Shown piece by piece: positions 1 to 20,364 of a stretch of DNA of 64,000 nucleotides. Made by a program: the position numbers and the translations under genes. Under the pieces are notes generated by a model that did no database searches, was not told where the DNA came from, and was given only the letters and a program-made list of their open reading frames with translations. Each line of letters starts with the position of its first letter. Positions within the stretch are counted from its first letter, which is position 1. The stretch is taken from NCBI GenBank assembly GCA_937960795.1, contig CALGPA010000002.1:25458-89457 (forward strand). The letters run 5' to 3'. The DNA comes from an uncultured bacterium. Its GTDB lineage: Bacteria > Cloacimonadota > Cloacimonadia > Cloacimonadales > Cloacimonadaceae.

Positions 1-543
1 TGAAAGTTGCACGGCTTTGGGTTCTTTTTCGCTGCCGCTGGTAAAGAGTATCACCGATATCTCGGATAGATCCCCATGGTGAACCATGTCTTTGAGGATG
101 CCGAAGGGCAGTTTTGTGATGAGGGCGGCTTTGAGCTTTGCTTTCAGATCCACTCTGGCAAGGATGTCTTCCACAAAGATCATGTCTTTAATGGGTTTGA
201 GGCCAAGCTTATCGAGCAGCTTTTTGCTGGTGATGATGGTCTTGAATTGGCATTTATCTTGGGCATAGATGCAGTTTTCGATGGCGCCGGTAGCGTAGTT
301 TATCATCACCGGTACTTTGCCTTTCATCAGGGTGCCAAGGATTGTGAGCATAGCGCCAACTCCTGTGGGCAAAAGCACTCCGATATATTTGCCTTTGATC
401 TTGCCAATATGTTCCTTTAGGATGAAGCTGGCGATCAGCATCCTGGAATAGCTGTAATCAGCCATAGTGGCTTTATCGTATACAGCAATGCGATTGGGAA
501 AACGTTTGGCTGTCTGAATGAATCTCTGATGTAATTGTAGCAT
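1..543 (-). CDS. AMP-dependent acyl ligase / acyl-ACP synthetase-like (Aas-type) protein, N-terminal 181 codons; gene continues past the window start
   Basis: My own minus-strand translation from ATG 543-541 gives MLQLHQRFIQTAKRFPNRIAVYD... and ends ...ISVILFTSGSEKEPKAVQLS at the window edge. That end matches AMP-binding motif I (TSGSxxxPK). A GAGG RBS lies upstream. It is absent from the ORF track because it has no stop inside the window. The plus-strand ORF 76..420 is its shadow. Confidence 0.7.
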   Translation of the reverse strand, partial: MLQLHQRFIQTAKRFPNRIAVYDKATMADYSYSRMLIASFILKEHIGKIKGKYIGVLLPTGVGAMLTILGTLMKGKVPVMINYATGAIENCIYAQDKCQFKTIITSKKLLDKLGLKPIKDMIFVEDILARVDLKAKLKAALITKLPFGILKDMVHHGDLSEISVILFTSGSEKEPKAVQLS

Positions 544-551
544 AATAAACC

Positions 552-1187
552 TCACTTAATAATATGTAGCCAGTCACCAAAGAGAAATTCAAGTCTGCCG
601 ATGAGTAGCGAGATGCGCGCCATCACGGTGTATCCGAAAGTAGCTCCGAAGCTAACCATCAAAAACCAGATTCCTATTTTGGAGGGCACTTTGGAGATTC
701 CCTCTTGTTTTTTGCTGAAATAGAAGAAATAGACTCCGCAAATAGTGCCGATGATCAAAAGCAGATTACCGATGATGATGGGTACTGACCCAGAAGCAAA
801 GGGATTGATCATCGTCGCGGTGACTTGCTGCAGGATATCACTTTTCATGTATCTGAGCATTGAGATCCCAGCCGTGGTGCCGATCATGATCGATATCGGA
901 TAGCGTGAGATCCACTCAGTCTTGGGGTGAATCCGCATCAGCATCATCACACCCAAAGCGGCGGGGATGAGAAGGATGATATTACCAGAAAAATCCGAAC
1001 TAAGCTTGGCAAAGAGATTGGGCACCATGATCGAATAGATGATATAGACCAACCAATATGCCGCTGACAAGCCGACAAAGACCTGCTCGGCAAACTTGTA
1101 GAACGGATTGTCTTTGTATAGAAAACTAAAGATGCATAGGGTGAAAAAGGCGGCAACCCAGATTCCGATCGTGGTCATGATAGTCAT
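552..1187 (-). CDS. polytopic membrane protein, unknown function (module gene 4)
   Basis: 211-aa ORF with about 6 hydrophobic helices and no catalytic motif recognised. Its ATG overlaps the upstream stop (ATGA, 1184-1187). The acyl-ligase start lies 9 nt downstream. Confidence 0.6.
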   Translation of the reverse strand: MTIMTTIGIWVAAFFTLCIFSFLYKDNPFYKFAEQVFVGLSAAYWLVYIIYSIMVPNLFAKLSSDFSGNIILLIPAALGVMMLMRIHPKTEWISRYPISIMIGTTAGISMLRYMKSDILQQVTATMINPFASGSVPIIIGNLLLIIGTICGVYFFYFSKKQEGISKVPSKIGIWFLMVSFGATFGYTVMARISLLIGRLEFLFGDWLHIIK

Positions 1188-2008
1188 TGTCTTTTCCTCC
1201 TTTTGCCGGCATAGGCTTTGATATTGCCCAAGCCTATGAAGATCAAGATCAGAAGGTGAGCGATGGATTGCGAATCCATCTTGGATGTGGCACTACCTAA
1301 TCTACCGATCAGGGTCTCATATTCACTGGCAGCTTTGAGACCACCCAGAAGACCCGTGAGCTGACGCTGTTCATTGACATAGGGGAAAAAGCCCGGAGCA
1401 CTGACAGCAGTGCAGCCGCCCGTGACCGGAACATCATAGCTATCTCGAGCCACCATCATCCACTCTTTGAGCCCTGGCACTCCACTGGAAAGGGAACTGA
1501 TCCAGGCAATGTCTCTGAGCCTGGAAATGCCGTCCAGCATAGGAATTTCAGCATAGGGAGTGTTTCTGGTATCAGTGGGAAAGACTTCTCTTAGACTTCT
1601 TCCCATGGCTTGGATGGTGACCATTCCACCCACTTTGTAGCCAAGATTCACATAGTCCACGCCGCGTTCTTTCTCGGGATATTCGATAAGAACGGTTTCC
1701 AGGGCTTGTTCAGCCATCTGTACGCCCATCGGCCACAAAGCAGTGAGGATGACCTTTTGATTGCGCATAAAAGCGTGCTCGATCATGGCTTCGCCCATGG
1801 GCTGAAGCTCGGTCATGGTAGATGGATCATAATCAAAAGATATGATAGCGACTGAGCCTTCGGGAGCGGATTGCACAAGATCGTAGACCATATGGGTATA
1901 TCCCGATACATCCGTCTTCCAACCAATCGGGAAGATCAATGGAAGCGCAACCGCGATAAATAGGACGGTGAAAATGATGCGGCGCTCAATGAGGATGTTC
2001 ATCTTCAT
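1184..2008 (-). CDS. bitopic membrane protein with ~210-aa hydrophilic domain, unknown function (module gene 3)
   Basis: 274-aa ORF. It has an N-terminal TM (RRIIFTVLFIAVALPLIF), a central soluble domain, and a C-terminal TM followed by a KRRKRQ tail. There are 4-nt start/stop overlaps at both ends. Confidence 0.6.
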   Translation of the reverse strand: MKMNILIERRIIFTVLFIAVALPLIFPIGWKTDVSGYTHMVYDLVQSAPEGSVAIISFDYDPSTMTELQPMGEAMIEHAFMRNQKVILTALWPMGVQMAEQALETVLIEYPEKERGVDYVNLGYKVGGMVTIQAMGRSLREVFPTDTRNTPYAEIPMLDGISRLRDIAWISSLSSGVPGLKEWMMVARDSYDVPVTGGCTAVSAPGFFPYVNEQRQLTGLLGGLKAASEYETLIGRLGSATSKMDSQSIAHLLILIFIGLGNIKAYAGKRRKRQ

Positions 2009-2703
2009 TTGTCACCTCCCAGATAGCTGCGCTCGATGCCTAGGATGATGCGCAGAGAACTGCCAACAATGCCAAGACCTGCAGATATCAAGATGGCTCT
2101 TTGAGCGGCAGTATTGGGAAATTCCATGATAAAATCCGCCAGATTGGGGAAATGCCAAAAGCTGAGAGATTCAGGCAGCCAGCCGGTGAGCATGGTTCCA
2201 ATGCTGGTGCGGCCGATGATTACTATGATGGCGGTGATCATCAGCAGGTTTGATTCCAGGCCGCGGATGATGAAGGCTCTGTATGCGGCAGAAGCAATGA
2301 AAAAAGCCAATAGTGAAAATAGAGTCGCGGAAAGCGGAAGATAGGCATTGTCAAAAAGATAGTCAAATGGCTTGAGCCCCAGCCAAGAAGCGATTCCTTC
2401 ACCATGACCCAATATTCCGGGAGTTTCGCGCATCCCCCACAACAGGCCAAAGCTGAGCATCAAGGCAAAGCTGATGAGCCCGGCGAGATGGTATTGCCAG
2501 TTTGGAGATTTGTGCATGATCTTGTGAGTATTCATGCGGATAAGACTGATCTGTCCAAGGAGAATGGCAAAACCGGAGATGATCATAAACCAGCCTTCCA
2601 AGGTGGAGACGATCTGATTGAAAGGACGATGGGGAATGAACTCTGAGAGCAAGACAATGAAGCCTACTATGAATGCAAAAACTAGGGGGAGAGATCTTTT
2701 CAT
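2005..2703 (-). CDS. polytopic membrane protein, unknown function (module gene 2)
   Basis: 232-aa ORF with about 6 hydrophobic helices and 4-nt overlaps with both neighbours. Confidence 0.6.
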   Translation of the reverse strand: MKRSLPLVFAFIVGFIVLLSEFIPHRPFNQIVSTLEGWFMIISGFAILLGQISLIRMNTHKIMHKSPNWQYHLAGLISFALMLSFGLLWGMRETPGILGHGEGIASWLGLKPFDYLFDNAYLPLSATLFSLLAFFIASAAYRAFIIRGLESNLLMITAIIVIIGRTSIGTMLTGWLPESLSFWHFPNLADFIMEFPNTAAQRAILISAGLGIVGSSLRIILGIERSYLGGDK

Positions 2704-3797
2704 GTGATAGCTCCGGCGATAAACTCTTTGAGATTTGAGATTCCAAGGATTTCTAATATGACGCCTACGATTATCAAAAAGATGACTAAGACTTTGCCAA
2801 AGTCATGTCCGCGCAAGCTGCCAAGCTGCTGAGGATCACGAGAGAGATAGGCGGATGCGGCAAATAGCTCCTCACCGATCAGGGTGTAGTCGCAGGTTAC
2901 CACAAAGAAGGGAAGTTGATGCGCTTGAGCCGTTCCTGCCGTCTGAATAGCGCCGGTGGAAAAGCCGGTCTCAGCCAAGATCAAGGATTCCGCGTAGAAA
3001 GAACCCATGAAGAAATTTGCCGCAGGCTGTTCGCGCAACATGATGCCGTCTATCCCGGCTACAAAGCCAAACTGATCGTCGGTCAAGTAAAAGACGTTAT
3101 CAGACTTGTAAGCATCAGGCTTGCCGGCTTTCATATAGGCTTCTTTGACCACTTCTCGAGCCGCAGAGAGCACCATGGAAAAACGGCAGGGGACGATGAT
3201 CTCCGTGTTGTACTCAGCGCTGCGCTCGGCAAGATGGGAGAGAATCGTGAGGCTGGCGATGGTCTGGATGTCGTCGAGATCACTGATGCCGGGTACATAG
3301 AGGATGGGTTTGCCCTTTTCGGTGGCTCGACCAATGGCTTCTTCCATGCTGTCCAATCCGGCAATGCGGCGGATGAAGAACTCTCTGCCGCGTCGGGCAG
3401 CGCGGATGTAATACAAGATGGCAAAGCATACCAGAGCCAGCAGAAGCAGAAAGCCCAGTTTTCCCATGTAGAACCACTGTTCCAAGGGGGTGGCACTGGC
3501 TTGAAGGACAAGGCTGTCATCTATAAAAGAGGCCACAAGTCGATAATCGTATTCGGTGTTTGCTTCTAGTCCCGTATCGGTATAGGAGCCTGAAGGCTCA
3601 TCTGAACTATGGACGGGTAGCCACATACCTTCTGAGACCATGCGGCTGATTGTGACTTGTCTGACCATTGGGCTGAGCTCCCAGCTGAGATCGATGGCCT
3701 TGCCGTCATCCCAGGGACTGTCCTTTGCGTCAAAGACATTTGTCCATAATGAGCTTGATAAAATAATTATAAAAAGGATTAAGAGGTATTTCCGCAT
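2700..3797 (-). CDS. FN3-domain membrane protein with large second domain, unknown function (module gene 1)
   Basis: I moved the start to ATG 3797 (MRKYLLILFIIILSSS, signal-like, AAGGAG RBS), because the ORF-track start at 3878 would read through a terminator hairpin. The protein has an FN3-like segment (DLSWELSP...YTDTGLEANTEYDYRLVA), a TM followed by RAARRGR, a ~250-aa domain, and a C-terminal TM. Confidence 0.6.
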   Translation of the reverse strand: MRKYLLILFIIILSSSLWTNVFDAKDSPWDDGKAIDLSWELSPMVRQVTISRMVSEGMWLPVHSSDEPSGSYTDTGLEANTEYDYRLVASFIDDSLVLQASATPLEQWFYMGKLGFLLLLALVCFAILYYIRAARRGREFFIRRIAGLDSMEEAIGRATEKGKPILYVPGISDLDDIQTIASLTILSHLAERSAEYNTEIIVPCRFSMVLSAAREVVKEAYMKAGKPDAYKSDNVFYLTDDQFGFVAGIDGIMLREQPAANFFMGSFYAESLILAETGFSTGAIQTAGTAQAHQLPFFVVTCDYTLIGEELFAASAYLSRDPQQLGSLRGHDFGKVLVIFLIIVGVILEILGISNLKEFIAGAIT

Positions 3798-3851
3798 CAG
3801 AGAACTCCTTTTGCTTGAATCCAAAATAGCACTAAGTGATATCACGAACAT

Positions 3852-3886
3852 CAAAAAACAAGCGGGCAGCGAGGCCACCCGCTTTT
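3852..3886 (-). terminator. rho-independent terminator after the lipoprotein gene
   Basis: The minus strand reads AAGCGGG-tggcctcgctg-CCCGCTT-gTTTTTT. This is a 7-bp GC-rich stem with an 11-nt loop and a T6 tract, 33 nt after the stop at 3919. Confidence 0.65.
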
Positions 3887-3918: not shown

Positions 3919-4716
3919 TCATTTCTGAAAGGCAGCTTTGATCTCATCTGTCTTTGTGATGATCTCTTGTAATTGGACTTTAGAAAAGCCGGAACTGTCA
4001 TGGCTTCGAATGATGGCTTGTACTTCTTTGGTGAGTTTTTTTGCCTCTTGGAAGGCTTCTTGATCCACTATATGGGGAGTTGAGATCTCCTCAAGATTGC
4101 TCACCAAGCTGTTGAAAGTACCCTTTTGGGCGAGAACCCTGGAGCGATCCGCATTGTAGTCTTCATGGATCAGCCAGGCAACTCTGTTTGCGGCTTCGAT
4201 CCATCCGCCAAGAAGCATGAGGGTGTAGTTGTCGAAGTTCTCACTTTCCCAAAGCTTGTTCTCTACGTCAGCTTTGTGGAAATCTAAAGCTTTGTCGAGG
4301 TTTTCCCAGTCTTCTCTTTCGATCATGGTCTTCATCTCGTCACCAAGGCGGTTCACCTCAGATTCAAGCCCTAAGAGACTGGTTAGATTCATCATCTGAG
4401 CGGAGATATCACTGAGTTTGCCTTTGTCTCGTCCTTTGGCGGCAAGCACGGCATCAGCAGTGAGCAATCCCAATGAAAAGGCGTTTCTCACTTCTTCCTG
4501 CCTGGTTTGGTAGACAGAGCTTGGAACCGCAGCAGAGATATCTCTGACTTTGATCTGATCCAAAGCACTGTAGACATCTTTGAAAGAGGGCAGAGGAGCG
4601 AAAGTGGTGGAACCCTGTTCTGTCTCCCCACCAGGTGTGTCAGCAGCTTTTTGTTTGCAAGCAAAAAGCCCCAATATGACGATCATTATCATCCCAATTA
4701 TTAGTCTTCGGTTCAT
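3919..4716 (-). CDS. lipoprotein, unknown function
   Basis: 265 aa. The lipobox is MNRRLIIGMIMIVILGLFAC. The mature part is acidic and helical. A TAAGGAG RBS is present, 11 nt after the ABC gene stop. Confidence 0.6.
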   Translation of the reverse strand: MNRRLIIGMIMIVILGLFACKQKAADTPGGETEQGSTTFAPLPSFKDVYSALDQIKVRDISAAVPSSVYQTRQEEVRNAFSLGLLTADAVLAAKGRDKGKLSDISAQMMNLTSLLGLESEVNRLGDEMKTMIEREDWENLDKALDFHKADVENKLWESENFDNYTLMLLGGWIEAANRVAWLIHEDYNADRSRVLAQKGTFNSLVSNLEEISTPHIVDQEAFQEAKKLTKEVQAIIRSHDSSGFSKVQLQEIITKTDEIKAAFQK

Positions 4717-4727
4717 GATGTTACTCC

Positions 4728-7700
4728 TTATTCTTTAAAATAGTATTTCAGCTTTATCCAGGTGATCAAGTTCAGCCCCAAGGCATATAGCAGGATCACC
4801 CAGGCGTTAAAATTCCACGTCCGGTATCTGCGGTTGCCTCTGAGTTTGTAGCTGGACAAAAACTCATTGCGTTCACTGTTTAAGACCCTTCCATCCATCA
4901 TGCTTACAGCAGAATTCAGATATCTGTTTAGGATCTGGTTTGGGTCCCATTTTTCGGCTACGGCTGTTTTGGCATAGTAAATCTCACCCCGCAGAGCCTG
5001 AAATTCTTCACTAGTGATTGCAGCATTCCTATAATCCCGTAAATATGTCAATTCCTTTTTTTCGATCTTGGCCAAGGAACGGTGGAATTTGGTGTTTTTG
5101 GCGTAGGCAGTGGTAAGTCCTTCAAAGAGCCATCTTGAAGGGATTGTCTGGACGATCTCGGGTATGGGACTGTTTTCGTAGAGCTTTAAGTTTCTATTCA
5201 TGCGCTCAAATTCTATCACTGCCCCACCAAAGATGATCTGTGGGATCAAGATCAATGGTAGGAGGTTGATAATCGCCCGGTTTTCTTTAATGAATGATGA
5301 TATCATGAGCCCCAGAGAATTCCCGATCAGTGAAGCCAAGAAGAAATAAGCAATGCTGCTGACGCCCATGCCGCGGATGTTTAGGATCTGCGCTGCTACG
5401 ATGTGGTAAAGTATCGCCTGGATAAGGCCAAAGAACGAAAGGGTCGTAAGCTTCGAGATCTGATAGCTGCTCATCTTGAGGTTCATCAGTCGTTCTCGCA
5501 AGATTATTTTGCGTTCACTTAAGATCTCTTCGATGGAGTTTGACATTCCCAGAAAGATAAAGGCGATGATCGAGACAAAGATGTAGATGAAGATGTTGTT
5601 GTTCTCATGATATGAGTATCTTGCCGCGGTAGTATGTCGCAGGATGAAAGCGATCAGGATGCCTAAAAGCGGAGCTTCGACAAAGGTGATGATATTGTTT
5701 GTTTTGTTCCTGATCTTCATGCGGAAACTGCGAGAAACAAAAGCCCAAAGGCTGACCAAGTAGTTCTTAGGCCCTAGGGCCTTTTTGATTCTCTTGGCTT
5801 CAGTAAAGCCCTCAGAAGGCACTTGGCTTTCGCTTTGGATCATCTCATAGAGCATCTTTCGCTTGAACTTGTCACGCCAATAATCAGGGCTAAACTTGCG
5901 TTTTACTTGAACTTGCTTTTGGATCTGTTCATACACCAAGTGCCCATTCTTGTCGTACTCAGGATAGGTTATGATGTCGTAGAAATAGTCAGATGTGAGA
6001 AGGCGTCGCTTAGTCTCAATCTCGTTTTTCTTGATCTTGATAAGCTGTAGTTCGTCGTCAAAGTAGCTAAAGCTATCGGTGGGCTTGCCAAAGAACGCGA
6101 TTCTGCCGCCCATATCCATCATCATCACCTTGTCAAACTTGCGATATATGCTGCTATTGGGTTGATGAATGGTTATGATCACGATCTTGCCCTGTTCACA
6201 GAGTTTGCCCAAGATGTCAATGATCTCCTCGGCGTCGTTGAAAGATAGGCCACTCGTCGGTTCATCACAGATGATGATCGTGGGTTCAAAGAGCAGCTCC
6301 AGGGCGATGTTTAGGCGTTTTCTCTCTCCACCGGATAGGTTCTTGGCCTTAAAGTCTCCCACGATCGTGTCGCGGTGGTGAGAGAGCTTCACCTGATGCA
6401 GGATGTTTCGCACCTTCTGATCAATCTGAGGTTTTTGCAGCTTGGGCATTCTCAGGCGTAGTCTGTACCATAGGTTATTATAGACACTAAGATTTGGATA
6501 GAGCAGATCATCTTGTGGGACGTATGCCAGATACTCCAGATAGAAGTTTAGGTTTGCACGGATGTTTTTGCCATCTATAGCTATCTGACCATAGGTGGGG
6601 GTGATCTCGCTGGAGAGAACTTTGGTGAGAGTTGATTTTCCGCAGCCGCTTTGTCCCATGATAGCGACCAACTGACCGGGATTTACCTCAAATGACACTG
6701 AATCCAGAGCAAGTTTGCCATCAGGGAAGAAGTGCTTGATATCCGTCACCGATAGTCTTTTGATCTCAAAAGGCGTTTCGATGAGATCAAAGAAGCTGTT
6801 GATGCGATAGTTGCGCTTCTCAATGGTGATGATGTCCGAGTTTAGGTTTATAACAGAAGGCTCAGTGACTGCTTTGCGATTCACGAAGATGTGATAGCCT
6901 TTTTTGGGAGGCATAAGATAGTAGACCCCGGATCGGTACTCAATCACAGCGATGGTGTTTTCCGAATCTTCACGGCTGGAGGAGAAGTAGCCCCTTTCTC
7001 TTTTGATATACAGTTTCCCCGGGGTGTAGTCGTCTACTCCGATACTGCTGCGGCTTTCAATGAGCATGCCTAGATGAAATGGGGCATATCCTCTGATCTG
7101 CAGCTTATCGTCAAAGAACACATCATGCCTGCGCAGATGAGTCATCTCTCTTCCGTTGAGAGCCACAGACCCGCTGTTTATGACAAAGCTGAAGCTATTG
7201 TTCGTCTTGTGCACGACGAAGTCATAGCTGCTTTTGCGGAAGACAATGTCGTCACTTTCATCCCGATAGTGATACATCTTTTGGAGGCATGAATATGAAT
7301 ACTCTCGACCGCCAATAGAAAGATAGGAATCCGGGCTGAGCATTATTATCGAATTGTGCTCGGGAATCTGTGCGCTCAGAAGCGCGCTGCTGCTCGAGGG
7401 GATGCTTAGGAATAGATGCTTATCGATGGCAAATAGTGCGCATTCATAGGGACTTAGACGTTCGCTGCGGAAGGCTATGTCTGCATCAGCACCTGAGCCA
7501 AAGACCACGTAATCCGAGAAAACAGAATGTCTAAGATGACTCAGATGATGCCGACATGGTGCACTCACCTGGCCGCTGCGTTGATGCTCAAAGTGATTGA
7601 TCAAGCTTAGAAATGCTTCGGAAGATGTATTGAGCTTTTTGCTGAGCTCCATGATCTCGGCAATCTCCGAGATAGCGAAGTCACTTTCGGTCTTTGCCAT

Positions 7701-8015
7701 GATCACCAGGGATTGCAAGATCCTGACTTTGTCAAACAGGGAAAGATATCGATCCAGATATTCAAGCACTTCGTCGATGTCATATGGAGTTTCCATGATC
7801 TGTTTTACATAGGCTTCCCAAGATACATCGACTTGAGCAAAAAGATTGGTCAAAAGCGAATAAAGGATGCCTATCTCATTGGCACTGATCTCATCATCAC
7901 CCTGAAGCAAGTAAACATATAGCCGCGTGACCATGTCTATGGTTTTTTTGAGACGTTCCTGACTATCACGGGTAAAGCTCGGCGGTTTTAGCATATCTCT
8001 CCTGCTTGTTTGCAT
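4728..8015 (-). CDS. ABC transporter, fused ATPase + ABC-2 (ABCG-like) permease with ~415-aa N-terminal cytoplasmic extension
   Basis: 1095 aa with Walker A GQSGCGKST, signature LSGGERKR and Walker B IIICDEPTSGL, followed by about 6 C-terminal TM helices. The N-terminal extension has a helical TerB/DjlA-N-like region and FHA-like beta segments. Both of those calls are by eye and low confidence. Confidence 0.8.
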   Translation of the reverse strand: MQTSRRDMLKPPSFTRDSQERLKKTIDMVTRLYVYLLQGDDEISANEIGILYSLLTNLFAQVDVSWEAYVKQIMETPYDIDEVLEYLDRYLSLFDKVRILQSLVIMAKTESDFAISEIAEIMELSKKLNTSSEAFLSLINHFEHQRSGQVSAPCRHHLSHLRHSVFSDYVVFGSGADADIAFRSERLSPYECALFAIDKHLFLSIPSSSSALLSAQIPEHNSIIMLSPDSYLSIGGREYSYSCLQKMYHYRDESDDIVFRKSSYDFVVHKTNNSFSFVINSGSVALNGREMTHLRRHDVFFDDKLQIRGYAPFHLGMLIESRSSIGVDDYTPGKLYIKRERGYFSSSREDSENTIAVIEYRSGVYYLMPPKKGYHIFVNRKAVTEPSVINLNSDIITIEKRNYRINSFFDLIETPFEIKRLSVTDIKHFFPDGKLALDSVSFEVNPGQLVAIMGQSGCGKSTLTKVLSSEITPTYGQIAIDGKNIRANLNFYLEYLAYVPQDDLLYPNLSVYNNLWYRLRLRMPKLQKPQIDQKVRNILHQVKLSHHRDTIVGDFKAKNLSGGERKRLNIALELLFEPTIIICDEPTSGLSFNDAEEIIDILGKLCEQGKIVIITIHQPNSSIYRKFDKVMMMDMGGRIAFFGKPTDSFSYFDDELQLIKIKKNEIETKRRLLTSDYFYDIITYPEYDKNGHLVYEQIQKQVQVKRKFSPDYWRDKFKRKMLYEMIQSESQVPSEGFTEAKRIKKALGPKNYLVSLWAFVSRSFRMKIRNKTNNIITFVEAPLLGILIAFILRHTTAARYSYHENNNIFIYIFVSIIAFIFLGMSNSIEEILSERKIILRERLMNLKMSSYQISKLTTLSFFGLIQAILYHIVAAQILNIRGMGVSSIAYFFLASLIGNSLGLMISSFIKENRAIINLLPLILIPQIIFGGAVIEFERMNRNLKLYENSPIPEIVQTIPSRWLFEGLTTAYAKNTKFHRSLAKIEKKELTYLRDYRNAAITSEEFQALRGEIYYAKTAVAEKWDPNQILNRYLNSAVSMMDGRVLNSERNEFLSSYKLRGNRRYRTWNFNAWVILLYALGLNLITWIKLKYYFKE

Positions 8016-8255: not shown

Positions 8256-9374
8256 ATGATAAGACGCATGTACCCGATCATCACACTTTGTCTCATAATG
8301 ACGATACCCGCAATAGCAGGAGCTATTCAAAGCAGCATTGGCGGTGAGATGTGGTCAAGATGGACACTGCAGACCGGCACTTCAGCTGCAGATAGCAGCA
8401 CTGTAATCAAACAAAACTCCATGGCCTTAGAAAGAGGTTACTTGGATTTTCGCACTAAGTTCAACCCAAATACTGACGCACGTTTTACGATTGATTTGTT
8501 TTCGACAGACAGCCAAAAGGATGGAGCGGGACTCAAGCTCAAATATGGGTTTGTGGACTTCAAGAATATCCTCCCGATCTCCCATGCAAATCTGACTGTA
8601 GGGCTGCAAAAAGTATATTTTGGATCCATCTATGACTGGGACTATAGTCTCATCGGGAAAGCTCCGGTAGATGAACACAAGCTCGCCAGCAGTGCGGATT
8701 ACGGAGTCTCAATCAACGGTAAACTCTCTTCCGGAAAAGGCGAATATGCTTTAGCTATCTACAATGGAGAAGGCTACAAGAATTATGGAGCCAATCTAAA
8801 AGAAAACACCCGTTTCGAATATTTGGCAAATCTCAGATACAAGCCCATCTCGCAAGTTACTTTGGGCGGTTCATTTATGACCAACAGCATCGGACGAGAA
8901 CGCGATCTGACGGCTGATCAACCGGTAAACACATATCAAGAGCAGATCCTCATGGACTTCCTGATGCGTCTGGACATCGCTCCGGTAAACATCACTTTCG
9001 AATATCTTCACAAAGACGCCAAGTATCCAAACATAGCTGATGGCACAGCTGATTACACTGCATCTGGGATCAGCATCATTCCGATAGTGAGCCTTAAGGA
9101 CATCACCTCAAAGGACATCCAGCTGGTGGGACGTTATGATCGTTGGGATCAGACAGATGACGCTGCAAACAAACATCTGCTAAACCTTTTTACAGCAGGG
9201 ATCAACTACAATTTCATGCATGACGAAAAATCTAAGCCCGCCATGCAAGCACAGCTAAACATCAGCCACAAGAGCTATGATCCGGACAAGTCACTAGCTA
9301 CATATCAAAACAATCTAAAAGACAGCACGACCGTCATGGCTCAGCTCAAATGGCGATTTTCCCATAAGATCTAA
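8256..9374 (+). CDS. outer-membrane porin, probably phosphate-selective (OprO/P-like)
   Basis: 372 aa with a signal peptide (…IPAIAGA), beta-strand-like alternating pattern and aromatic-rich C-terminus (KWRF). It lies directly upstream of pstS behind the Pho-box-like array. AAGGAG RBS. Confidence 0.55.
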   Translation: MIRRMYPIITLCLIMTIPAIAGAIQSSIGGEMWSRWTLQTGTSAADSSTVIKQNSMALERGYLDFRTKFNPNTDARFTIDLFSTDSQKDGAGLKLKYGFVDFKNILPISHANLTVGLQKVYFGSIYDWDYSLIGKAPVDEHKLASSADYGVSINGKLSSGKGEYALAIYNGEGYKNYGANLKENTRFEYLANLRYKPISQVTLGGSFMTNSIGRERDLTADQPVNTYQEQILMDFLMRLDIAPVNITFEYLHKDAKYPNIADGTADYTASGISIIPIVSLKDITSKDIQLVGRYDRWDQTDDAANKHLLNLFTAGINYNFMHDEKSKPAMQAQLNISHKSYDPDKSLATYQNNLKDSTTVMAQLKWRFSHKI

Positions 9375-9385
9375 AGGAGAGAACA

Positions 9386-10195
9386 ATGCGTAAATATCTT
9401 ATCTTGACACTAGCTTTGGCAGCAGCTCTATCACTGGGGCACGCTCGCACAAATCAAATCACCAGTTCCGGATCCACGACCGTCCTACCCGTCGCTCAGG
9501 CAGCTGCGGAAGCCTATATGGATCTGAATCCCTCGATCAACATCTCAGTAAGAGGCGGAGGCTCAGGCGTGGGAGTAGCGGCGTTGCAAAATGGCACTGT
9601 GCAGATTGCAAATTCTTCCCGACCAATGAAGGCTTCTGAAGCCGCAGCATGTGAGGCCAAAGGCTTCAAGCCCGCCGCCTATGCCATCGCCAATGATGGA
9701 ATCGCCATGGTGGTTCACCCCACAAACCCCATCAAAAACCTCACCGTGAGCCAGATCCGGGACATCTATACCGGAAAGATCAGTAACTGGAAAGAGCTGG
9801 GTGGCAGGGATCTCGCCATCGTAATCATCTCAAGAGATGTTGCTTCCGGCACCTTTGAAGTCTTCAACGACAAAGCTCTGTCCAATAAGAAGGTAGTCTC
9901 TTCAGCTCAGCTATTAGCTTCAAACAACGCCGTAGTGACAGCCGTGAGCAGCACACCGGGAGGGATTGGCTATGCTGGTTTGGGATACATCACTGATCTG
10001 GTGAGAGTAGTCTCTGTAGATGAGATATTTCCAACGATAAGCACTATCCAAGATGGGACCTATCCCTTAAGCCGCAAATTGTTCATGTTCACTCGCGGCA
10101 AAGCTACAGGAGATGTAGATCGTTTCTTGGCTTGGATCCAATCTGCAGCCGGTCAAAAGATAGTTGCAGAACAAGGATTTATTCCGATCAGATAA
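9386..10195 (+). CDS. pstS: phosphate ABC transporter substrate-binding protein PstS
   Basis: 269 aa with a signal peptide and the PstS-type motif SSGSTTVLPVAQAAAEAY. Operon context with pstCAB. Confidence 0.9.
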   Translation: MRKYLILTLALAAALSLGHARTNQITSSGSTTVLPVAQAAAEAYMDLNPSINISVRGGGSGVGVAALQNGTVQIANSSRPMKASEAAACEAKGFKPAAYAIANDGIAMVVHPTNPIKNLTVSQIRDIYTGKISNWKELGGRDLAIVIISRDVASGTFEVFNDKALSNKKVVSSAQLLASNNAVVTAVSSTPGGIGYAGLGYITDLVRVVSVDEIFPTISTIQDGTYPLSRKLFMFTRGKATGDVDRFLAWIQSAAGQKIVAEQGFIPIR

Positions 10196-10264
10196 TCAAA
10201 ACCACCGCTCTCGGCAAGGAACATCCATCCTTGCCGGGATCGGGCTTAAAAGGAAAGCATTAAT

Positions 10265-11131
10265 ATGCAAATAATGGAAAAGACCTTCAAAGCCACCAGC
10301 TATATTGCGGCTTTCATCTGCATCATAGCCGTGTTTGGCATCATCATCAGCATCTTCATGGAAGGACTTCCACTCTTTAGGGTAGTGAGCATCAAAGAAT
10401 TCATCTTCGGTGATGCCTGGTATCCCACCCATCACGATGCCGCACAATTTGGGATCAGAAATCTCATCATCGGCTCTTTCTTAGCTACCTTGGGTGCCAT
10501 CGTCATTTCTGTGCCGTTGGGCTTGGGATCAGCCATTTTCATCTCAGAGCTTGCAAGCTCGAGCTACAAAGACTTTGCCAAGCCGGTGATTGAGCTTCTG
10601 GCAGCGATTCCGAGTGTGGTCTATGGTCTCTTTGGAATGGCGATTGTAGCTCCATACATCAGAGAAATCTTTGATTTGTCCACGGGACTCAATCTCTTCA
10701 CGACATCCATCATTTTGGGTCTGATGGTTGTCCCGATCATCGCCAGTATGAGCGAAGATGCTTTGTCCAATGTTCCCAAAAACCTCAAAGAAGCTTCATT
10801 AGCTCTGGGGGCCACAAAGTGGCAAACCATCGTCAGAGTAGTCGTTCCCACAGCCAAAAGAGGGATCAATGGATCGATTCTGCATGGCTTTGGAAGGGCA
10901 ATCGGAGAAACCATGGTAGTCTTAATGGTGGCAGGAGGATCAGCTCAGATTCCGGGATCAATCTTTGAGTCCATCCGCCCTCTTACTTCCACTATAGCCG
11001 CGGAGATGGGCGAGACCGTCGTGGGTGATCTTCATTATCGATCGCTTTTTGCAATCGCGATCGTGCTCTTTGTGATTACCTTCATAGTAAATCTCGCCGC
11101 TGAGCTCAGCTTTGCAAAGAGAGGCCGATAG
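10265..11131 (+). CDS. pstC: phosphate ABC transporter permease PstC
   Basis: 288-aa polytopic protein with an EAA-like loop (EASLALGATKWQTIVRVVVP). Confidence 0.9.
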   Translation: MQIMEKTFKATSYIAAFICIIAVFGIIISIFMEGLPLFRVVSIKEFIFGDAWYPTHHDAAQFGIRNLIIGSFLATLGAIVISVPLGLGSAIFISELASSSYKDFAKPVIELLAAIPSVVYGLFGMAIVAPYIREIFDLSTGLNLFTTSIILGLMVVPIIASMSEDALSNVPKNLKEASLALGATKWQTIVRVVVPTAKRGINGSILHGFGRAIGETMVVLMVAGGSAQIPGSIFESIRPLTSTIAAEMGETVVGDLHYRSLFAIAIVLFVITFIVNLAAELSFAKRGR

Positions 11132-11985
11132 TGAAGTTTCCCAGAATCTGTGATATTTTGGGCAAGAGCTTGGTGACAATGATGTTTGTCCTCACTCTAA
11201 GCGCGCTTGCTATCTTTTTGATCGCCGTCCTCAGTCGGGGACTGGGCATGATCTCATGGACGTTTTTGACAGATGTCCCACGAAATGGCATGACCGAAGG
11301 CGGAATCTTCCCGGCGCTGGTCGGCACGTTTTGGCTGACCATCCTTTCTGTAGCAATTGCCCTGCCTCTGGGCATCTTTTGTGCGATCTACCTATATGCT
11401 TATGGCAAGCCTTTGTGGTTTGTCAGCATCGTAAAACTCGCTATCAACACTTTGGTCGGGATTCCATCAATCATATACGGACTCTTTGGCATGGCAGTGT
11501 TTGTAAACATCATGTCGCTTGATGTATCTTTAATATCCGGAGCGCTCACTTTGGCGATCCTAGCTCTTCCTCTGATCATCATTGCCTCAGAAGAAGCCAT
11601 GCAGGCCGTTCCAAAAGACTTTTGTGATGCGTCCTATGCCTTGGGAGCTGCCCAAGGAAAGACGATCACCCGTATAGTGCTTCCGACTGCTCTACCGAAC
11701 ATCCTCACCGGAGCCATCATCAGCATTGGCAGAGTGGCAGGGGAGACCGCTCCCATCATGTTTACTGCTGCCACCTTCTATTCCCGCAGACTCCCGCAAT
11801 CTTTAAGTCACGAAGTAATGGCTTTGCCATACCATATCTTTGCATTGATGACGGAAGGCTCAAACTCTGCCAAACAAACCCCGATTGCTTATGGCACGGC
11901 ATCCGTGCTGCTACTTTTGGTATTGGGGATATCCTCGATTGCCATCATAATACGCTATCATCTTAGGAGAAAAAAACAATGGTAA
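11131..11985 (+). CDS. pstA: phosphate ABC transporter permease PstA
   Basis: 284 aa. GTG start overlaps the pstC TAG stop by 1 nt. EAA loop is [20 protein letters not shown]. Confidence 0.9.
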
Positions 11986-12737
11986 AAAGCCATATATCCA
12001 CCAAAGACTTGAATCTCTGGTTTGCCGAAAACCACGTATTGCACGATATAAATATGGATCTCTACGAAAACAAGATAACCGCCATGATCGGCCCCTCAGG
12101 ATGCGGCAAATCAAGTCTGCTTCGCTGTTTCAACCGGATGAATGACCTCATCCCAAAATCCAAAATCAAAGGAAGCATAATCCTTGATGATCTTGATATA
12201 TATCATCCGCAGATCCCTGTGACACAGATACGCACAAAGGTGGGGATGGTCTTTCAAAAACCCAATCCTTTTCCCAAGAGTATCTTCAACAACGTTGCCT
12301 ATGGACTCAAGATTCAAGGAAAATTTCGCAAGAGCGAGATCCGCGACAGGGTCGAAAAAAGCCTCATGGACGCGTGGCTTTGGGATGAGGTCAAGGACAG
12401 ACTCCATTCTTCGGCAATGTCTTTGTCGGGGGGGCAGCAGCAGCGCTTATGCATTGCCAGAGCTTTGGCAAATAGTCCCAGAATATTGCTTTTGGATGAG
12501 CCCACATCTGCTCTGGATCCCCAATCAACTGCCAAGATCGAAGAGCTCTGCCTGGATCTTAAGGATAAAGTCACCATCCTCATTGTAACCCACAATATCG
12601 CTCAAGCCGGAAGAATCTCGGATTATACCGCCTTCATGTATCTAGGAGACATGGTGGAGTTTGACGAAAGCTCAAAAGTCTTTACCGTTCCAAAAGATAA
12701 ACGCACTGAAGCATATCTCACCGGCGTTTTTGGATAG
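11979..12737 (+). CDS. pstB: phosphate import ATP-binding protein PstB
   Basis: 252 aa with Walker [10 protein letters not shown], signature LSGGQQQR and Walker [12 protein letters not shown]. It has the PstB-typical N-terminus. Confidence 0.95.
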
Positions 12738-12756
12738 ATCTAAATAGGAGAAAAAC

Positions 12757-13440
12757 ATGCTAAGTAATAAACTAAATGAACTCAAAAGAATGCTCTTGGA
12801 CGAAGCGGCATATGTCGAGAAAATGGTGATCATATCAATGAACGCTATCCAAAGGGGCTATGAATGCAATCTCGATTCTGTGCTCAGCTATGAAGACAAA
12901 GTAAACAAGCTGGAGCTCGAGATTGAGCGCTTTTGCACAAACATCATTGCCTTGTATCAACCCGAGGCTATTGATCTGCGCACAGTGTTGATGACCTACA
13001 AGATAAACAATGATCTGGAAAGATTGGCGGATCAGGCAGTTAACATTGCCGAAAGCGCAAATTCGATCTGCGGTGAACCGATCGGTGACTATCTGCCACA
13101 GATTATCTGCATGAAGAAAAAGGCAATCCAGATGTTGCACAAAAGTATATCAGCCTTCATCGATCGAAACATCGACTTGGCAAGACAAGTATGTCTGGAA
13201 GACAATGCTGTTGATGAGCTAAATAGAACCCTTCACAACACCCTGATCGACTTGATGAAGGACAGGCCGGGATATATCGATAGCTATCTGCATCTTATGC
13301 GTATATCCAAGAATCTGGAACGCGTAGCAGATCTTTCTACAAACATCGCCGAAAACACCATCTTCCTTGCCTCAGGGAAAGTAGTGAAACACCATATAGA
13401 CGAAACAGATCCCGAAAATGAGAAAAAGATCATAGGCTGA
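12757..13440 (+). CDS. phoU: phosphate signalling complex protein PhoU
   Basis: 227 aa with duplicated PhoU repeats (DLERLADQAVNIAE and NLERVADLSTNIAE). Confidence 0.9.
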   Translation: MLSNKLNELKRMLLDEAAYVEKMVIISMNAIQRGYECNLDSVLSYEDKVNKLELEIERFCTNIIALYQPEAIDLRTVLMTYKINNDLERLADQAVNIAESANSICGEPIGDYLPQIICMKKKAIQMLHKSISAFIDRNIDLARQVCLEDNAVDELNRTLHNTLIDLMKDRPGYIDSYLHLMRISKNLERVADLSTNIAENTIFLASGKVVKHHIDETDPENEKKIIG

Positions 13441-16184: not shown

Positions 16185-16239
16185 CTTTCTTCCTAATCCA
16201 TTTTGAGTCTCATCGTGGCGGATGGGCATTTTTCGGCAA

Positions 16240-16301: not shown

Positions 16302-19160
16302 CTAATCTATGATGCTGACACTGGCTCTCACGACTCCCGCTCGGATCCTTGTATGCGGCTCAAGAAGGCAATCCTTGCCGATATTTTCCTTGAGGAAAGC
16401 CAGCTGTGCAGGGCTATATCTCAGATCTCCAAAACCCTGGATCAAGATCAAGGTAGCAGGAATGGGCTCAAAGCCTGTGTTGATCACACCCTGCTCTTGC
16501 CCGAGATATTCCACAGCCTCGGCTTCCGGTATGGCTGCAGCCACGATTCCCAGGGCTCCGGAATCGGAAAGATTCTTTAAATCCTTTGCGCTTGGGCGAT
16601 ATCCCAAGACCAATATGCTGCCTTGAGAAAAGACCCTGTTGTCATCTGAGCTTTCCTGCCAGATCAGTTTGCCATGGATCGGATTTCCCCAGCCTATGCT
16701 AGCTTCGAGGCGCACTGCTTCAAAAGCAATCTCGATAGCCTTAGCCTCGTCAACACTGATTATTTCACCGGGCACATGCGCATAGTAGTTGTGGGGTTTT
16801 GTATTGTATTTGATGGTCATTTCTGCGGTTTTCTTGTCGTAGGATACGATCTCTCCGGTCGTGGGGGATTGAACCATGGCAACACTGGAGGTTGCAATCT
16901 TTTGCGCCAACATATCGCCTTGATAGACAAAGTCTCCCACACCTTTCTTGAGGTATCTGCTGATCTTTTTGGCAGGCATGGACATCTTGTCTGCGAGATT
17001 TACCATCACCGGCTTCGAGCTGTAGTCTTGGATCTCACTAGCCACCACCATGCCGTTTGAGTAGTCAATGAACTCCACCTTGCCGCGTACCGGGGATCTG
17101 AAGGGAAGATTGTGCCTGGCGTTTGGCATGGGTTGAAGCAGGATCTGATCAAAATCAATCCTATCTCCGGGATTGATGGTGAGATTGCGTCTAATATCTT
17201 CTTCAAGCGCGTCTTCACAAGCTGAGCAAGTGCGAATGACATATAGTCGAGGAGGATTGTAGCGATTCACCGCCACGATGTCTTCCGGGCTGACCTTGTC
17301 TTTGACATTTTTGAGGATGTCACCATTGTATGGCAATTCCACATCTCTGTGATAAGTATCCCGAGCGGGGATGTTGTCATTGCCAAAACTAAGGCTTGTT
17401 TCTTCCGCAGAATCTGTGTTATAGATGCTTAAGATCCGATCAAAACCCTCATGATAGCGATCCCGATCAAGGCGAGTATCAATGATGATGGGCAGATCTG
17501 TCTCAATTTCCTGCCCATCAGTGGAGCCTTGGAGCATGCACTTTTTATGTGGGGTGAGCTGGATCTTTTGCTTAGCTTGAGCGGGTAGGAGCATTACTTC
17601 ATCAGCTCTGATGGTCTTGGTCGGCTGACTATCTTGTATAAGCTCCAGAACCTTGATTCCGGTTTTCTTGGGGAAATGAGGACGAACATAGATCGCCAGG
17701 CTTTTGAGGCATTCCTTCTCGAGAAGCTCAGCTGCCAAAGCCTCATCCGTATCCATCAAGACGCCCAAATGCGGCGATATAAAGTGTCTGTCGATGGCAA
17801 GTTCGGTGATGCCGGATGGTTTGAATCCTGATATCAAGACATCAACGGATTGGAAGTGGTTTTGCGCGTGAGCAAAGACTCCGCCTGCTCCGATGACGAG
17901 GTCAATATCGCTAGGGTAGAAATAGTGCTTACTTTCATTTTGGATGTATTCAAATTTCTCTTCATACTTGTCCTGACCGTTGTTCTTGAGCGCATCCAAA
18001 TAGCCGATCTTCTCGCTATTGTAGTGCATTTCCTGATGTTGAACAAAGGAAAGCTGAATGGCGGCTTTGGCGAGTGCGTGCTCGATCCTAAACTCTGTGG
18101 TGTTCTTTGGATTAAGAGTGGGGTAGAGGGTTTTATTTCCCACATAGTTTCTCAGCTGAGTTTCGCCTATATCCGGGGGCAAAGCTGCCAGGATGCTTTC
18201 CGTGCCACTCTCGCGCATGATATTCAGGGCACTGTAGCTCATTCCCAGATTGCCGCTTACAGTCCTTTGGTAGTGACCATTGATTCGAGTGAAAATATCG
18301 GTTGTCGCTCCACCAATATCAAAAGCGATGAGATCCATTTGGCGCTTCTCTCCAAGCTTTAGGATGGATTGCAAGACACCTGCGGGAGTGGGACGGATCT
18401 GACTCTGAACCAAACTCTTTAGCTTGCTATAGCCGGGAGCTCGCTCCATCACGTTTTCCATGAATAGCTCTTGGATCTTGTCCTGACTGGGTTTAAGGTT
18501 CTCAGCGTTTAGACTGGGACGAAGATTGGGCAGGACATGCAGATCAAAGTCCTTGGAAATCATGCGCTTGATCATCTCAGCCGCATCTTGGTTGCCGGCA
18601 TAGATGGTCGGGATGCGCGCCTGTGTGCTAAACTTTGGCACAGGCTTGGCGATGCGCAGGATCTCTGCCAAGCGCAGGACTGAGGCTATGGCTCCACCAT
18701 CGATACCTCCACTAAGCAGGATCATATCCGGACGTAGATTGCGCATTGAGAGCATCTGCTCTAGGGCACTACGTTTGTCGTCAATAGCAAAGACGTCGAG
18801 GATGACTCCACCGGCTCCATATGCTGCGCGGCGAGCGCTGCTGGCACTATCAAAAAGAGTGAGTCCGATGACCAAGATTTGCAGTCCCCCACCCGCGCTG
18901 CTGGTAGATAGATATCTGATATTGGGCTCAAAGCTCAGTTTAGTAGGCGTTGCATCAGCTGCCAAAAGCGGGATACTAAGGCGTTTCTGTAGCTCCTGAG
19001 TGGATTGGAAGACTCCATGAGACACATCGCTATGCGGCTCTTCAACCGTGGTATCAGAGTGTTCTATTCCCAATAGCTTGCCCTGAGCTCTGTCGATAAG
19101 TATGGCTTTGGTGGTCGTGGATCCAATATCTGTGATCAGTATGTATTCTATATCTTTCAT
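16302..19160 (-). CDS. GlmL/MutL-like ASKHA-fold ATPase fused to a ~470-aa uncharacterised C-terminal region
   Basis: 952 aa. The N-terminus ILITDIGSTTTKAIL and a later FDIGGATTDIF are the two phosphate-binding motifs typical of the glutamate mutase L (reactivase-like) family, which is normally about 460 aa. The C-terminal half has barrel-sandwich-like strands (PVRGKVEFIDYSNG, SPTTGEIVSYD, VPGEIISVDE). I recognise no family for it. Confidence 0.5.
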   Translation of the reverse strand: MKDIEYILITDIGSTTTKAILIDRAQGKLLGIEHSDTTVEEPHSDVSHGVFQSTQELQKRLSIPLLAADATPTKLSFEPNIRYLSTSSAGGGLQILVIGLTLFDSASSARRAAYGAGGVILDVFAIDDKRSALEQMLSMRNLRPDMILLSGGIDGGAIASVLRLAEILRIAKPVPKFSTQARIPTIYAGNQDAAEMIKRMISKDFDLHVLPNLRPSLNAENLKPSQDKIQELFMENVMERAPGYSKLKSLVQSQIRPTPAGVLQSILKLGEKRQMDLIAFDIGGATTDIFTRINGHYQRTVSGNLGMSYSALNIMRESGTESILAALPPDIGETQLRNYVGNKTLYPTLNPKNTTEFRIEHALAKAAIQLSFVQHQEMHYNSEKIGYLDALKNNGQDKYEEKFEYIQNESKHYFYPSDIDLVIGAGGVFAHAQNHFQSVDVLISGFKPSGITELAIDRHFISPHLGVLMDTDEALAAELLEKECLKSLAIYVRPHFPKKTGIKVLELIQDSQPTKTIRADEVMLLPAQAKQKIQLTPHKKCMLQGSTDGQEIETDLPIIIDTRLDRDRYHEGFDRILSIYNTDSAEETSLSFGNDNIPARDTYHRDVELPYNGDILKNVKDKVSPEDIVAVNRYNPPRLYVIRTCSACEDALEEDIRRNLTINPGDRIDFDQILLQPMPNARHNLPFRSPVRGKVEFIDYSNGMVVASEIQDYSSKPVMVNLADKMSMPAKKISRYLKKGVGDFVYQGDMLAQKIATSSVAMVQSPTTGEIVSYDKKTAEMTIKYNTKPHNYYAHVPGEIISVDEAKAIEIAFEAVRLEASIGWGNPIHGKLIWQESSDDNRVFSQGSILVLGYRPSAKDLKNLSDSGALGIVAAAIPEAEAVEYLGQEQGVINTGFEPIPATLILIQGFGDLRYSPAQLAFLKENIGKDCLLEPHTRIRAGVVRASVSIID

Positions 19161-20362: not shown

Positions 20363-20364
20363 GC

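Follow-up and report, generated by a model that had tools for sequence, protein, structure and literature searches.

What do four overlapping genes for membrane proteins, found near one end of a contig from an uncultured Cloacimonadaceae bacterium, encode, and with which other proteins do they work? The genes lie in a 64,000-nucleotide stretch of GenBank assembly GCA_937960795.1 (contig CALGPA010000002.1, positions 25,458 to 89,457), the whole of which we call the window. All four are on the minus strand, and we call them g1 (2700..3797; 365 residues from an ATG at 3797, by open reading frame [ORF] call and a Pfam match to DUF6754) and, by ORF call, g2 (2005..2703; 232 residues, polytopic, about 6 transmembrane helices), g3 (1184..2008; 274 residues, a periplasmic domain between two transmembrane helices), and g4 (552..1187; 211 residues, polytopic, about 5-6 transmembrane helices). 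A preliminary description made from the sequence had read them as one translationally coupled module encoding a membrane complex; the ATGA start/stop overlaps on which it leaned were found again at the identical positions (2700-2703, 2005-2008, and 1184-1187), and together with the synteny described below they bear this reading out. We conclude that the products of g1 to g4 are the core subunits of a single hetero-oligomeric complex, obligate and set in the cytoplasmic membrane, a conclusion held with much greater confidence than anything we say about function. Recurrent operon adjacency and a gene fusion further lead us to infer that the complex has three partners: a GlmL-family ASKHA ATPase, a protein of about 375 residues (p375), and a small hairpin protein; that all of these together form an ATP-coupled machine for envelope transport or assembly, of a kind not yet described, is a tentative proposal to which we attach low confidence.

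Homologs of g1 are numerous: at least 8000 at 90% clustering and 2445 clusters at 50% identity, and every homolog listed carries the precomputed DUF6754 domain. When one genome for each GTDB species was scanned for the pattern, at least 596 stretches were confirmed. The 79 loci that were retained come from Cloacimonadota, Zixibacteria, WOR-3, Fermentibacteria/Aegiribacteria, Stahlbacteria, Coatesbacteria, Eisenbacteria, Edwardsbacteria, Latescibacterota, Ignavibacteria, Poribacteria, Planctomycetota, Acidobacteriota, Armatimonadota, Bacillota, and Vulcanimicrobiota, so that no fewer than 15 named phyla or candidate divisions of bacteria have the cassette. An iterated search of all ORFs with profile hidden Markov models (HMMs) found g2, g3, and g4 in 74-77 of 82 loci, and in the inspected loci that lack them (L014, L034, L059, L079) the contig ends just after g1 or g2. 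The order g1-g2-g3-g4 holds in 322 of 326 neighboring gene pairs, far more than chance would produce; three of the four exceptions are split ORFs, presumably frameshifts, and the fourth is locus L080, where the gap held no called g2 ORF. The junctions have medians of 9, -1, and -1 nucleotides, and the four families are 35-60% identical between phyla. They are chromosomal and always found together; no plasmid or phage homologs of the cassette were found, and a mobile-element context is unsupported. Absence of conserved gene order among relatives, which the preliminary description had itself named as evidence that would count against it, is therefore not what we observe for g1-g4, where conservation is very strong. 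The cassette is a true module of ancient origin, and its four genes are passed on in the fixed order g1-g2-g3-g4.

Two or three cassettes stand in tandem in loci of Zixibacteria and Ignavibacteria, and eight loci are triplicated (L039, L043, L057, L060, L065, L070, L076, L078). Identity is higher between same-position copies of different genomes than between the copies of one genome, for g1 (70-89% against 53-72%) and for g3 (51-88% against 27-41%). Copies 1, 2, and 3 are each orthologous to their positional counterparts elsewhere and form conserved paralog classes; the triplication is therefore ancient, and each copy has been kept.

Clustering of the ORFs that flank the cassette brought out recurrent partners that the preliminary description had overlooked: i) a hydrophobic hairpin protein of about 132 residues (p132); ii) a protein of about 610 residues matching Pfam MutL (PF13941; E 2.7e-119), a family of ASKHA-fold ATPases to which the glutamate mutase accessory protein GlmL/MutL belongs and which is distinct from the mismatch-repair MutL; and iii) p375. 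The trio p132-GlmL-like-p375 lies directly upstream of g1 in Fermentibacteria, Eisenbacteria, Planctomycetota, Acidobacteriota, and Zixibacteria, with p375 ending 3-25 nucleotides before g1 in L031, L037, L038, and L045 and overlapping it by 4 nucleotides in L082; the same series precedes g1 on one further contig. The trio is downstream of g4 in a Vulcanimicrobiota locus and between two cassettes on one Zixibacteria contig, and in Latescibacterota p375 alone precedes g1.

The window holds the same ATPase and p375 as a single gene of 952 codons (16302..19160, minus strand), in which a GlmL-family ASKHA ATPase (residues ~1-560) is followed by p375 (~600-950). Residues 7-484 match Pfam MutL (E 2.5e-95, 320 bits against a cut-off of 27), and our own HMMs identify the GlmL-like part at residues 2-556 (E 1.6e-140) and the p375 part at 601-950 (E 6.8e-30); no database record has exactly this sequence. 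The phosphate-binding motifs of the ASKHA fold are intact in the ATPase (DIGSTTTKA, DIGGATTD). Because separate adjacent genes upstream of the cassette in other phyla correspond to its two halves, the 952-codon gene is a "Rosetta-stone" fusion, and its product is likely to be the cytoplasmic partner of the cassette.

The partner ATPases are related to the GlmL/MutL accessory proteins of B12-dependent glutamate and ornithine mutases, as shown by the Pfam matches (E 2.5e-95 to 2.7e-119) and the intact ASKHA motifs, but differ from them in three respects. They score 145-224 bits against the NCBIfam GlmL models TIGR01319, NF040745, and NF040744, whose cut-offs are 204, 475, and 600, and fall below all three; the fusion itself reaches 145, 213, and 175 bits, respectively, so its ATPase constitutes a distinct subfamily. 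They are about 150 residues longer than those models (about 450-460 residues). Finally, they adjoin the membrane cassette or tol-pal-like genes, and no mutase family was found among the annotated flanking genes (the window genes beside the fusion, and representatives of the recurrent flanking clusters).

Searches with 19 members of the p375 family matched RnfC_N in 10 (best E 3.8e-5), Biotin_lipoyl in 10, and NQRA_N in 6, no family above threshold; in the first member examined, too, the RnfC_N, NQRA_N, and Biotin_lipoyl matches lie below the curated cut-offs. Taken together these matches indicate an N-terminal barrel-sandwich hybrid domain, and the family has conserved TEGFG and GATQIRAGV motifs. 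They also raise the question of whether the whole is an ion-translocating or energy-conserving complex like Rnf or the Na+-translocating NADH:quinone oxidoreductase (Na+-NQR), with p375 as the NqrA/RnfC-like subunit, g2 and g4 as the pair of small six-helix proteins, and g3 as the periplasmic bitopic one. In the kinds of subunit they specify, the cassette and p375 do recall the rnfCDGEAB and nqrA-F operons: on both sides two small polytopic proteins and a bitopic periplasmic one are combined with a peripheral protein, whose RnfC_N/NqrA_N-type barrel-sandwich domain is, for p375, indicated by the matches above. The resemblance does not extend to the sequences of the membrane subunits, which lack homology to those of Rnf and Na+-NQR: Rnf-Nqr, NQR2_RnfD_RnfE, and FMN_bind gave no match at E<=1 in 31 members each of g2, g3, and g4; our HMMs scored at most 4.5 bits against Escherichia coli RsxABCDGE; the family alignments contain no cofactor motifs, that is, no conserved Cys/His clusters or flavin sites; and the likeness of p375 to RsxC is limited to the barrel-sandwich motif, with an hhalign probability of 3%. 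Nor do Rnf and Nqr have an ASKHA ATPase as partner. We regard a complex of this type as very improbable.

The association was also approached in reverse, by a metagenome scan seeded with p375. A GlmL-like gene lies upstream of p375 in 43 of the 53 loci with room for one, and the cassette lies downstream in 20 of the 39 loci with at least 4.5 kb, the g1 start falling within 800 nucleotides in 17. The association of the cassette with its partners is strong, recurrent across phyla, and backed by a gene fusion, and adjacency is not obligatory. Two other genes recur upstream of p375 in these surroundings. One encodes a protein of about 150 residues with two transmembrane helices and a soluble domain, found 2-6 kb upstream and ahead of the GlmL-like gene; the loci in question, where it lies upstream of p132, are L085, L088, L095, L098-L100, L126, L141, L145, and L157. 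The other, a frequent upstream neighbor in the metagenome p375 loci, encodes a GcvP2-type glycine dehydrogenase.

Where no cassette follows p375, the downstream genes often make up a Tol-Pal-like set (tolQ/exbB, exbD, TonB_2, a PD40 propeller, and an OmpA-family gene), and in some loci tolQ-tolR-tolA-tolB-pal-like genes come directly after p375. In L102, L105, L121, and similar loci the Tol-Pal-like set follows the GlmL-like, p265, and p375 genes on one strand, and L102 and L121 have in addition two cassettes divergently upstream. Other p375 loci have an outer-membrane-barrel-like protein and accA downstream, with accA 0.8-1.2 kb away in 8 metagenome loci. Envelope genes also occur downstream of the cassette itself: in Fermentibacteria it is followed by a TonB-dependent receptor with ExbB, and in WOR-3 and Stahlbacteria by ExbB or ExbD genes at a distance of about 3 kb.

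Such neighbors could also belong to a structural or scaffolding complex of the envelope, connected with Tol-Pal, division, or cell shape, whose task would be to anchor an actin-fold protein to the membrane and not to transport a substrate. An ASKHA-fold partner, Tol-Pal-like genes directly downstream of p375 in several loci, ectodomains of protein-interaction type (FN3 or a BamB-like propeller, see below), and a MurJ gene that lies, in the window, about 3 kb away from the fusion are all consistent with a scaffold. We nonetheless think a scaffold unlikely: three differentiated cassettes in tandem in one genome fit variants in specificity better, conserved polar residues in the transmembrane helices suggest conduction or binding inside the membrane, and no GlmL-family protein is known to polymerize.

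Topology was predicted from hydropathy and positive-inside counts averaged over 31-33 homologs from many phyla. The g1 protein consists of a signal/anchor, an FN3 domain outside, a transmembrane helix (residues ~113-133), a cytoplasmic region of about 195 residues, and a second transmembrane helix (~332-355). The FN3 domain (3492..3737, minus strand; residues ~21-102, predicted periplasmic), which the preliminary description had recognized, is upheld by structure prediction: it is modeled by AlphaFold2 (AF2) as seven strands with a predicted local distance difference test score (pLDDT) of about 90, and Foldseek superimposes it on 7jgu with a target-normalized TM-score of 0.78 and a root-mean-square deviation of 1.9 Å (E 4e-6). 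For 7jgu and 3mpc the E values are 4e-6 to 4e-5; there are 46 matches with E<=1e-3, and nearly all of the top 50 are FN3 domains. The Pfam FN3 sequence model gave no match to g1 at E<=1, and a sequence search of the PDB with g1 gave a weak match to 3mpc (E 0.025). The N-terminal part is highly variable among homologs, from almost nothing to about 1000 residues: one homolog of 803 residues (P0245) has BamB/PQQ-like beta-propeller repeats at ~340-530 in place of a single FN3 domain, and another of 1276 residues (P0369), at the long end of the range, has no domain detectable against the PDB.

The remainder of g1 is DUF6754 (2721..3482, minus strand; residues 106-359), comprising the first transmembrane helix, a cytoplasmic alpha/beta core, and the second transmembrane helix. 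It matches PF20539 over model positions 3-256 of 257 (E 5e-123, 409.7 bits against a cut-off of 27). Representatives of 50%-identity clusters from many phyla are 45-62% identical in this domain, and a multi-phylum alignment of 33 sequences has 42 invariant columns, 12 of them acidic or basic; invariant D332 and K335 open the second transmembrane helix. Full-length g1 modeled from a shallow alignment left the DUF6754 part poorly resolved. Modeled separately, from a 60-sequence multi-phylum alignment, the domain is predicted to have a Rossmann-like four-stranded alpha/beta core between long N- and C-terminal helices (pLDDT 65.5, predicted TM-score 0.61). Foldseek found nothing in the PDB below E 0.09 or above a TM-score of 0.26 for this model; the top matches were F1 gamma subunits at a TM-score of 0.2, a likeness we judge to be topological coincidence. 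In the literature searched DUF6754 is not mentioned, and the Pfam family has no assigned function.

The other three proteins likewise carry conserved polar residues. The g2 protein has about 6 transmembrane helices with both termini inside and invariant R142, R202, and R225; g3 has a cytoplasmic N terminus with invariant R9, a transmembrane helix, a periplasmic domain of about 210 residues, a second transmembrane helix with conserved Q247, H251, and N262, and a basic tail inside; and g4 has invariant N27, E34, Q121, and R191. None of the three window proteins matches Pfam or NCBIfam, and Pfam searches with 31 diverse members of each family produced scattered hydrophobic noise only, most commonly TMD0_ABC (9 of 31 g2 sequences, best E 0.0025). 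Nor could sequence relatives of g2, g3, or g4 be found in the PDB: phmmer (g1, g3) and profile hmmsearch (g1-g4, p375) returned weak FN3 matches and noise. The preliminary description recognized no characterized family for any of the four proteins, and this holds, g1 belonging to DUF6754 only and g2, g3, and g4 to none.

The same description placed the soluble domains of g1 and g3 on opposite sides of the membrane, cytoplasmic and periplasmic, respectively, and our topology agrees. It also saw a duplicated two-gene unit in the series, with g1 paired with g3 and g2 with g4. We find no support for such a duplication at the sequence level: BLASTP gave no match within either pair; the hhalign probability was 0.4% for shallow profiles and, for deep profiles drawn from many phyla, 0.4% (g2/g4) and 1.1% (g1/g3); no ORF was matched by more than one of the four iterated family HMMs; and when trimmed regions (the soluble domains, the motif stretch quoted in favor of the duplication, and the polytopic pair) were compared by global and local hhalign with 60-100 column shuffles, the profile scores equaled those of the shuffled controls (z -0.9 to 1.1). 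The motif strings themselves are real and partly conserved within each family, but their likeness across families does not rise above chance.

Opposed domains leave room for a related idea, that g1+g2 and g3+g4 are inverted-topology halves of an ion-coupled secondary transporter, in which conserved stretches rich in G, A, S, and T, one in g1 on the cytoplasmic side and one in g3 on the periplasmic side, would be opposed re-entrant elements. Apart from the opposite facing of the g1 and g3 domains, the spacing from the quoted motif to the AAS.Y helix and on to the final transmembrane helix is similar in the two proteins by manual count (about 27 residues in g1 and 30 in g3, then about 19 in both), and the most conserved stretch of g1, which models poorly as a soluble domain and differs in secondary structure between the two AF2 runs, would fit an element embedded in the membrane. 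The comparisons just described provide no sequence signal whatever for inverted halves, however; hydropathy does not predict the G/A/S/T-rich stretches to be transmembrane; and the ATPase partners are left unexplained. We therefore consider this arrangement quite unlikely.

We return to the proposed ATP-coupled machine. Its membrane part, g1 to g4 together, has about 16 transmembrane helices, the very highly conserved cytoplasmic DUF6754, the g3 periplasmic domain of about 210 residues, and the variable g1 ectodomain. In such a machine g2 and g4 might form a membrane conduit, with conserved Arg, Glu, Asn, Gln, and His residues in or beside transmembrane helices; DUF6754 might dock the ATPase-p375 pair on the cytoplasmic side, or couple to it; and g3 and the variable g1 ectodomain, as a periplasmic adaptor, might handle cargo or a partner on the other side. 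A role in transport or in the envelope is suggested by the polar transmembrane residues, the FN3 or propeller ectodomains, the Tol-Pal, TonB, and ExbB neighbors, and the differentiated tandem cassettes. In its boldest form, which we consider rather unlikely as it stands, the proposal is that of an undescribed class of machine, in which a GlmL-type actin/Hsp70-fold ATPase energizes a transmembrane complex of four subunits so as to move or assemble some component of the envelope; such a machine would be ancient and housekeeping-like in many phyla of the FCB group and other candidate phyla, with three specialized versions in Zixibacteria and Ignavibacteria. The known primary transport systems are driven by ABC, P-type, rotary, or AAA+ ATPases.

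We wish to set out plainly what weighs against this proposal. No subunit has detectable homology to a transporter, motor, or enzyme, so the proposed function is drawn from context only, and no transporter energized by an ASKHA protein is known. The context itself is incomplete: when the search is seeded with g1, the ATPase or p375 appears in only 12 of the 46 loci outside Cloacimonadota with at least 4 kb upstream; in the window 12.4 kb lie between g1 and the fusion upstream of it, a space that includes a pst-phoU operon as well as sigma-factor, kinase, and regulator genes; and the ATPase trio could serve another system, because it is also found beside tol-pal-like genes with the cassette absent from the stretch that was fetched. 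The AF2 model of DUF6754 is of moderate quality, and its most conserved stretch (AESLILAETG...GAIQTAGT...QLPFF) falls below pLDDT 50 and takes on a different secondary structure in the full-length and the DUF6754-only runs. Finally, g2, g3, and g4 are set apart from known systems by sequence comparison, and kinship at the level of the fold is possible.

How does the cassette compare with other systems of known type? The known family DUF6754 accounts for residues 106-359 of g1 but covers only one of four components (or of seven, with the partners). In PilM-PilN-PilO, MreB-MreC-MreD, and GspL-GspM, a cytoplasmic ASKHA-fold protein is likewise encoded with bitopic and polytopic partners, and the arrangement here may be analogous; no sequence relationship to these assemblies was detected, and neither a secretin nor a hexameric ATPase was noticed in the conserved neighborhood. 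Like the envelope ABC-type systems GldF/GldG and MlaE/MlaD, the cassette pairs a small polytopic protein with one (g3) that has a periplasmic domain between two transmembrane helices, but g1-g4 include no ABC_tran domain and gave no Pfam matches to those families. As for motors of the MotAB, ExbBD, or TolQR type, no MotA_ExbB or ExbD/MotB match was found in g1-g4, and true ExbB and ExbD are separate neighbors. The literature searched contains no description of the four-gene cassette, its partners, or its function. What was already known is DUF6754 as a Pfam family; the cassette and its partners display no defining feature of a known transporter, motor, or respiratory family.

Three of the four co-occurring families are thus outside Pfam and NCBIfam, and all four are without a relative of solved structure by sequence. 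If coupling to an ASKHA ATPase proved true, it would be a new principle of energy coupling in membrane biology, and a large set of genes now labeled "hypothetical" would gain a role in Cloacimonadota, Zixibacteria, WOR-3, Poribacteria, and their uncultivated relatives, lineages that abound in digesters, sediments, and sponges. Should the function turn out to be mundane, the first reading of the locus is still corrected in that its link to a ligase is local, its supposed duplication has no counterpart in the sequences, and the true partners lie elsewhere in the window.

The ligase deserves separate treatment, for the preliminary description had tied the module to acyl or lipid chemistry through it. 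The 5' part of an AMP-dependent acyl ligase gene of Aas/AasS type (1..543, minus strand; 181 codons, Pfam AMP-binding) follows g4 and runs out of the window. It begins close behind g4 as described, but 8 rather than 9 nucleotides after it (ATG 543-541; g4 stop 554-552). In NCBIfam it comes closest to the ligase half of Aas and to long-chain-fatty-acid--ACP (acyl carrier protein) ligase, with a best score of 115 bits against a cut-off of 1221, although with only 181 codons in the window the gene cannot reach the equivalog cut-offs. Its relatives are stand-alone proteins of 509 residues with AMP-binding and AMP-binding_C only; they share the AMP-binding domain with Aas/AasS and lack an acyltransferase domain.

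A complex that handles lipids or acyl chains together with this ligase, for example in uptake of fatty acids or lysophospholipids or in transport of envelope lipids, would account for the 8-nucleotide spacing, which is held in position among the closest Cloacimonadota loci, and weak hints in the same direction come from accA, near p375 in the 8 metagenome loci mentioned above, and from nearby tol-pal-like genes; the E. coli tol-pal operon starts with the thioesterase gene ybgC. The ligase follows g4, however, only in the 10 closest Cloacimonadota loci (L001-L010, three of which are contigs of one homolog) and in none of about 70 loci from other lineages, and Pfam and NCBIfam scans detected no lipid-binding or acyltransferase family in the subunits. 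The proposed link to lipid chemistry thus finds no support beyond this group; the ligase is a Cloacimonadota-specific neighbor and no defining component of the module, and a lipid-handling complex built around it seems to us a poor prospect.

The genes on the other side of the cassette are equally local. A lipoprotein-like gene (3919-4716, minus strand; 265 residues) begins 11 nucleotides after the gene of a single-chain ABC protein (4728-8015, minus strand; 1095 residues, ABC_tran and ABC2_membrane), which has an N-terminal extension of about 430 residues with a weak FHA-like match. Both occur upstream of the cassette almost only in Cloacimonadota and elsewhere in one or two odd loci; because their linkage is so restricted, these genes, like the ligase, are lineage-specific neighbors, and the ABC gene, which might otherwise invite comparison with ABC transporters, lies beyond a terminator-like hairpin from the cassette.

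This hairpin (3850..3884, minus strand), between g1 and the lipoprotein-like gene, has a stem of 11 base pairs, 7 of them G-C, in a stem-loop at 3884-3860 followed by a T-tract. The g1-g4 transcript probably has its 5' boundary here, so that g1-g4, with the ligase, probably have a transcript of their own, apart from the ABC and lipoprotein-like genes. Between the hairpin and g1 lies TATTTTGG, which resembles the Bacteroidetes-type -7 promoter motif TAnnTTTG, and then an AAGGAG Shine-Dalgarno sequence (3805..3810, minus strand), 7 nucleotides upstream of the ATG at 3797. This ATG is likely to be the g1 start, because of the Shine-Dalgarno sequence, because homologs are 364-368 residues long, and because the alternative, a GTG at 3878, was rejected as it would begin inside the hairpin. 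No Rfam element that might represent a riboswitch or RNA leader was found in the window or in 8 loci of other phyla.

No homologs of the Tol-Pal genes, accA, p132, p151, p265, or p278 were found in the window. Upstream of the ABC gene come an ORF of 372 residues without a Pfam match (8256-9371), ahead of the pst genes; a phosphate-uptake block of pstS-, pstC-, pstA-, and pstB-like genes with a PhoU-domain gene (9386-13440, plus strand); and genes for a sigma-70-family factor, a HAMP/PAS histidine kinase, and an OmpR-type response regulator (13676-16229, minus strand). Beyond the fusion gene, on the minus strand at 19229-25414, are genes for an aldo/keto reductase with a 4Fe-4S dicluster tail, UvrC, the lipid II flippase MurJ, a protein like the DNA polymerase III delta' subunit, and a GNAT acetyltransferase.

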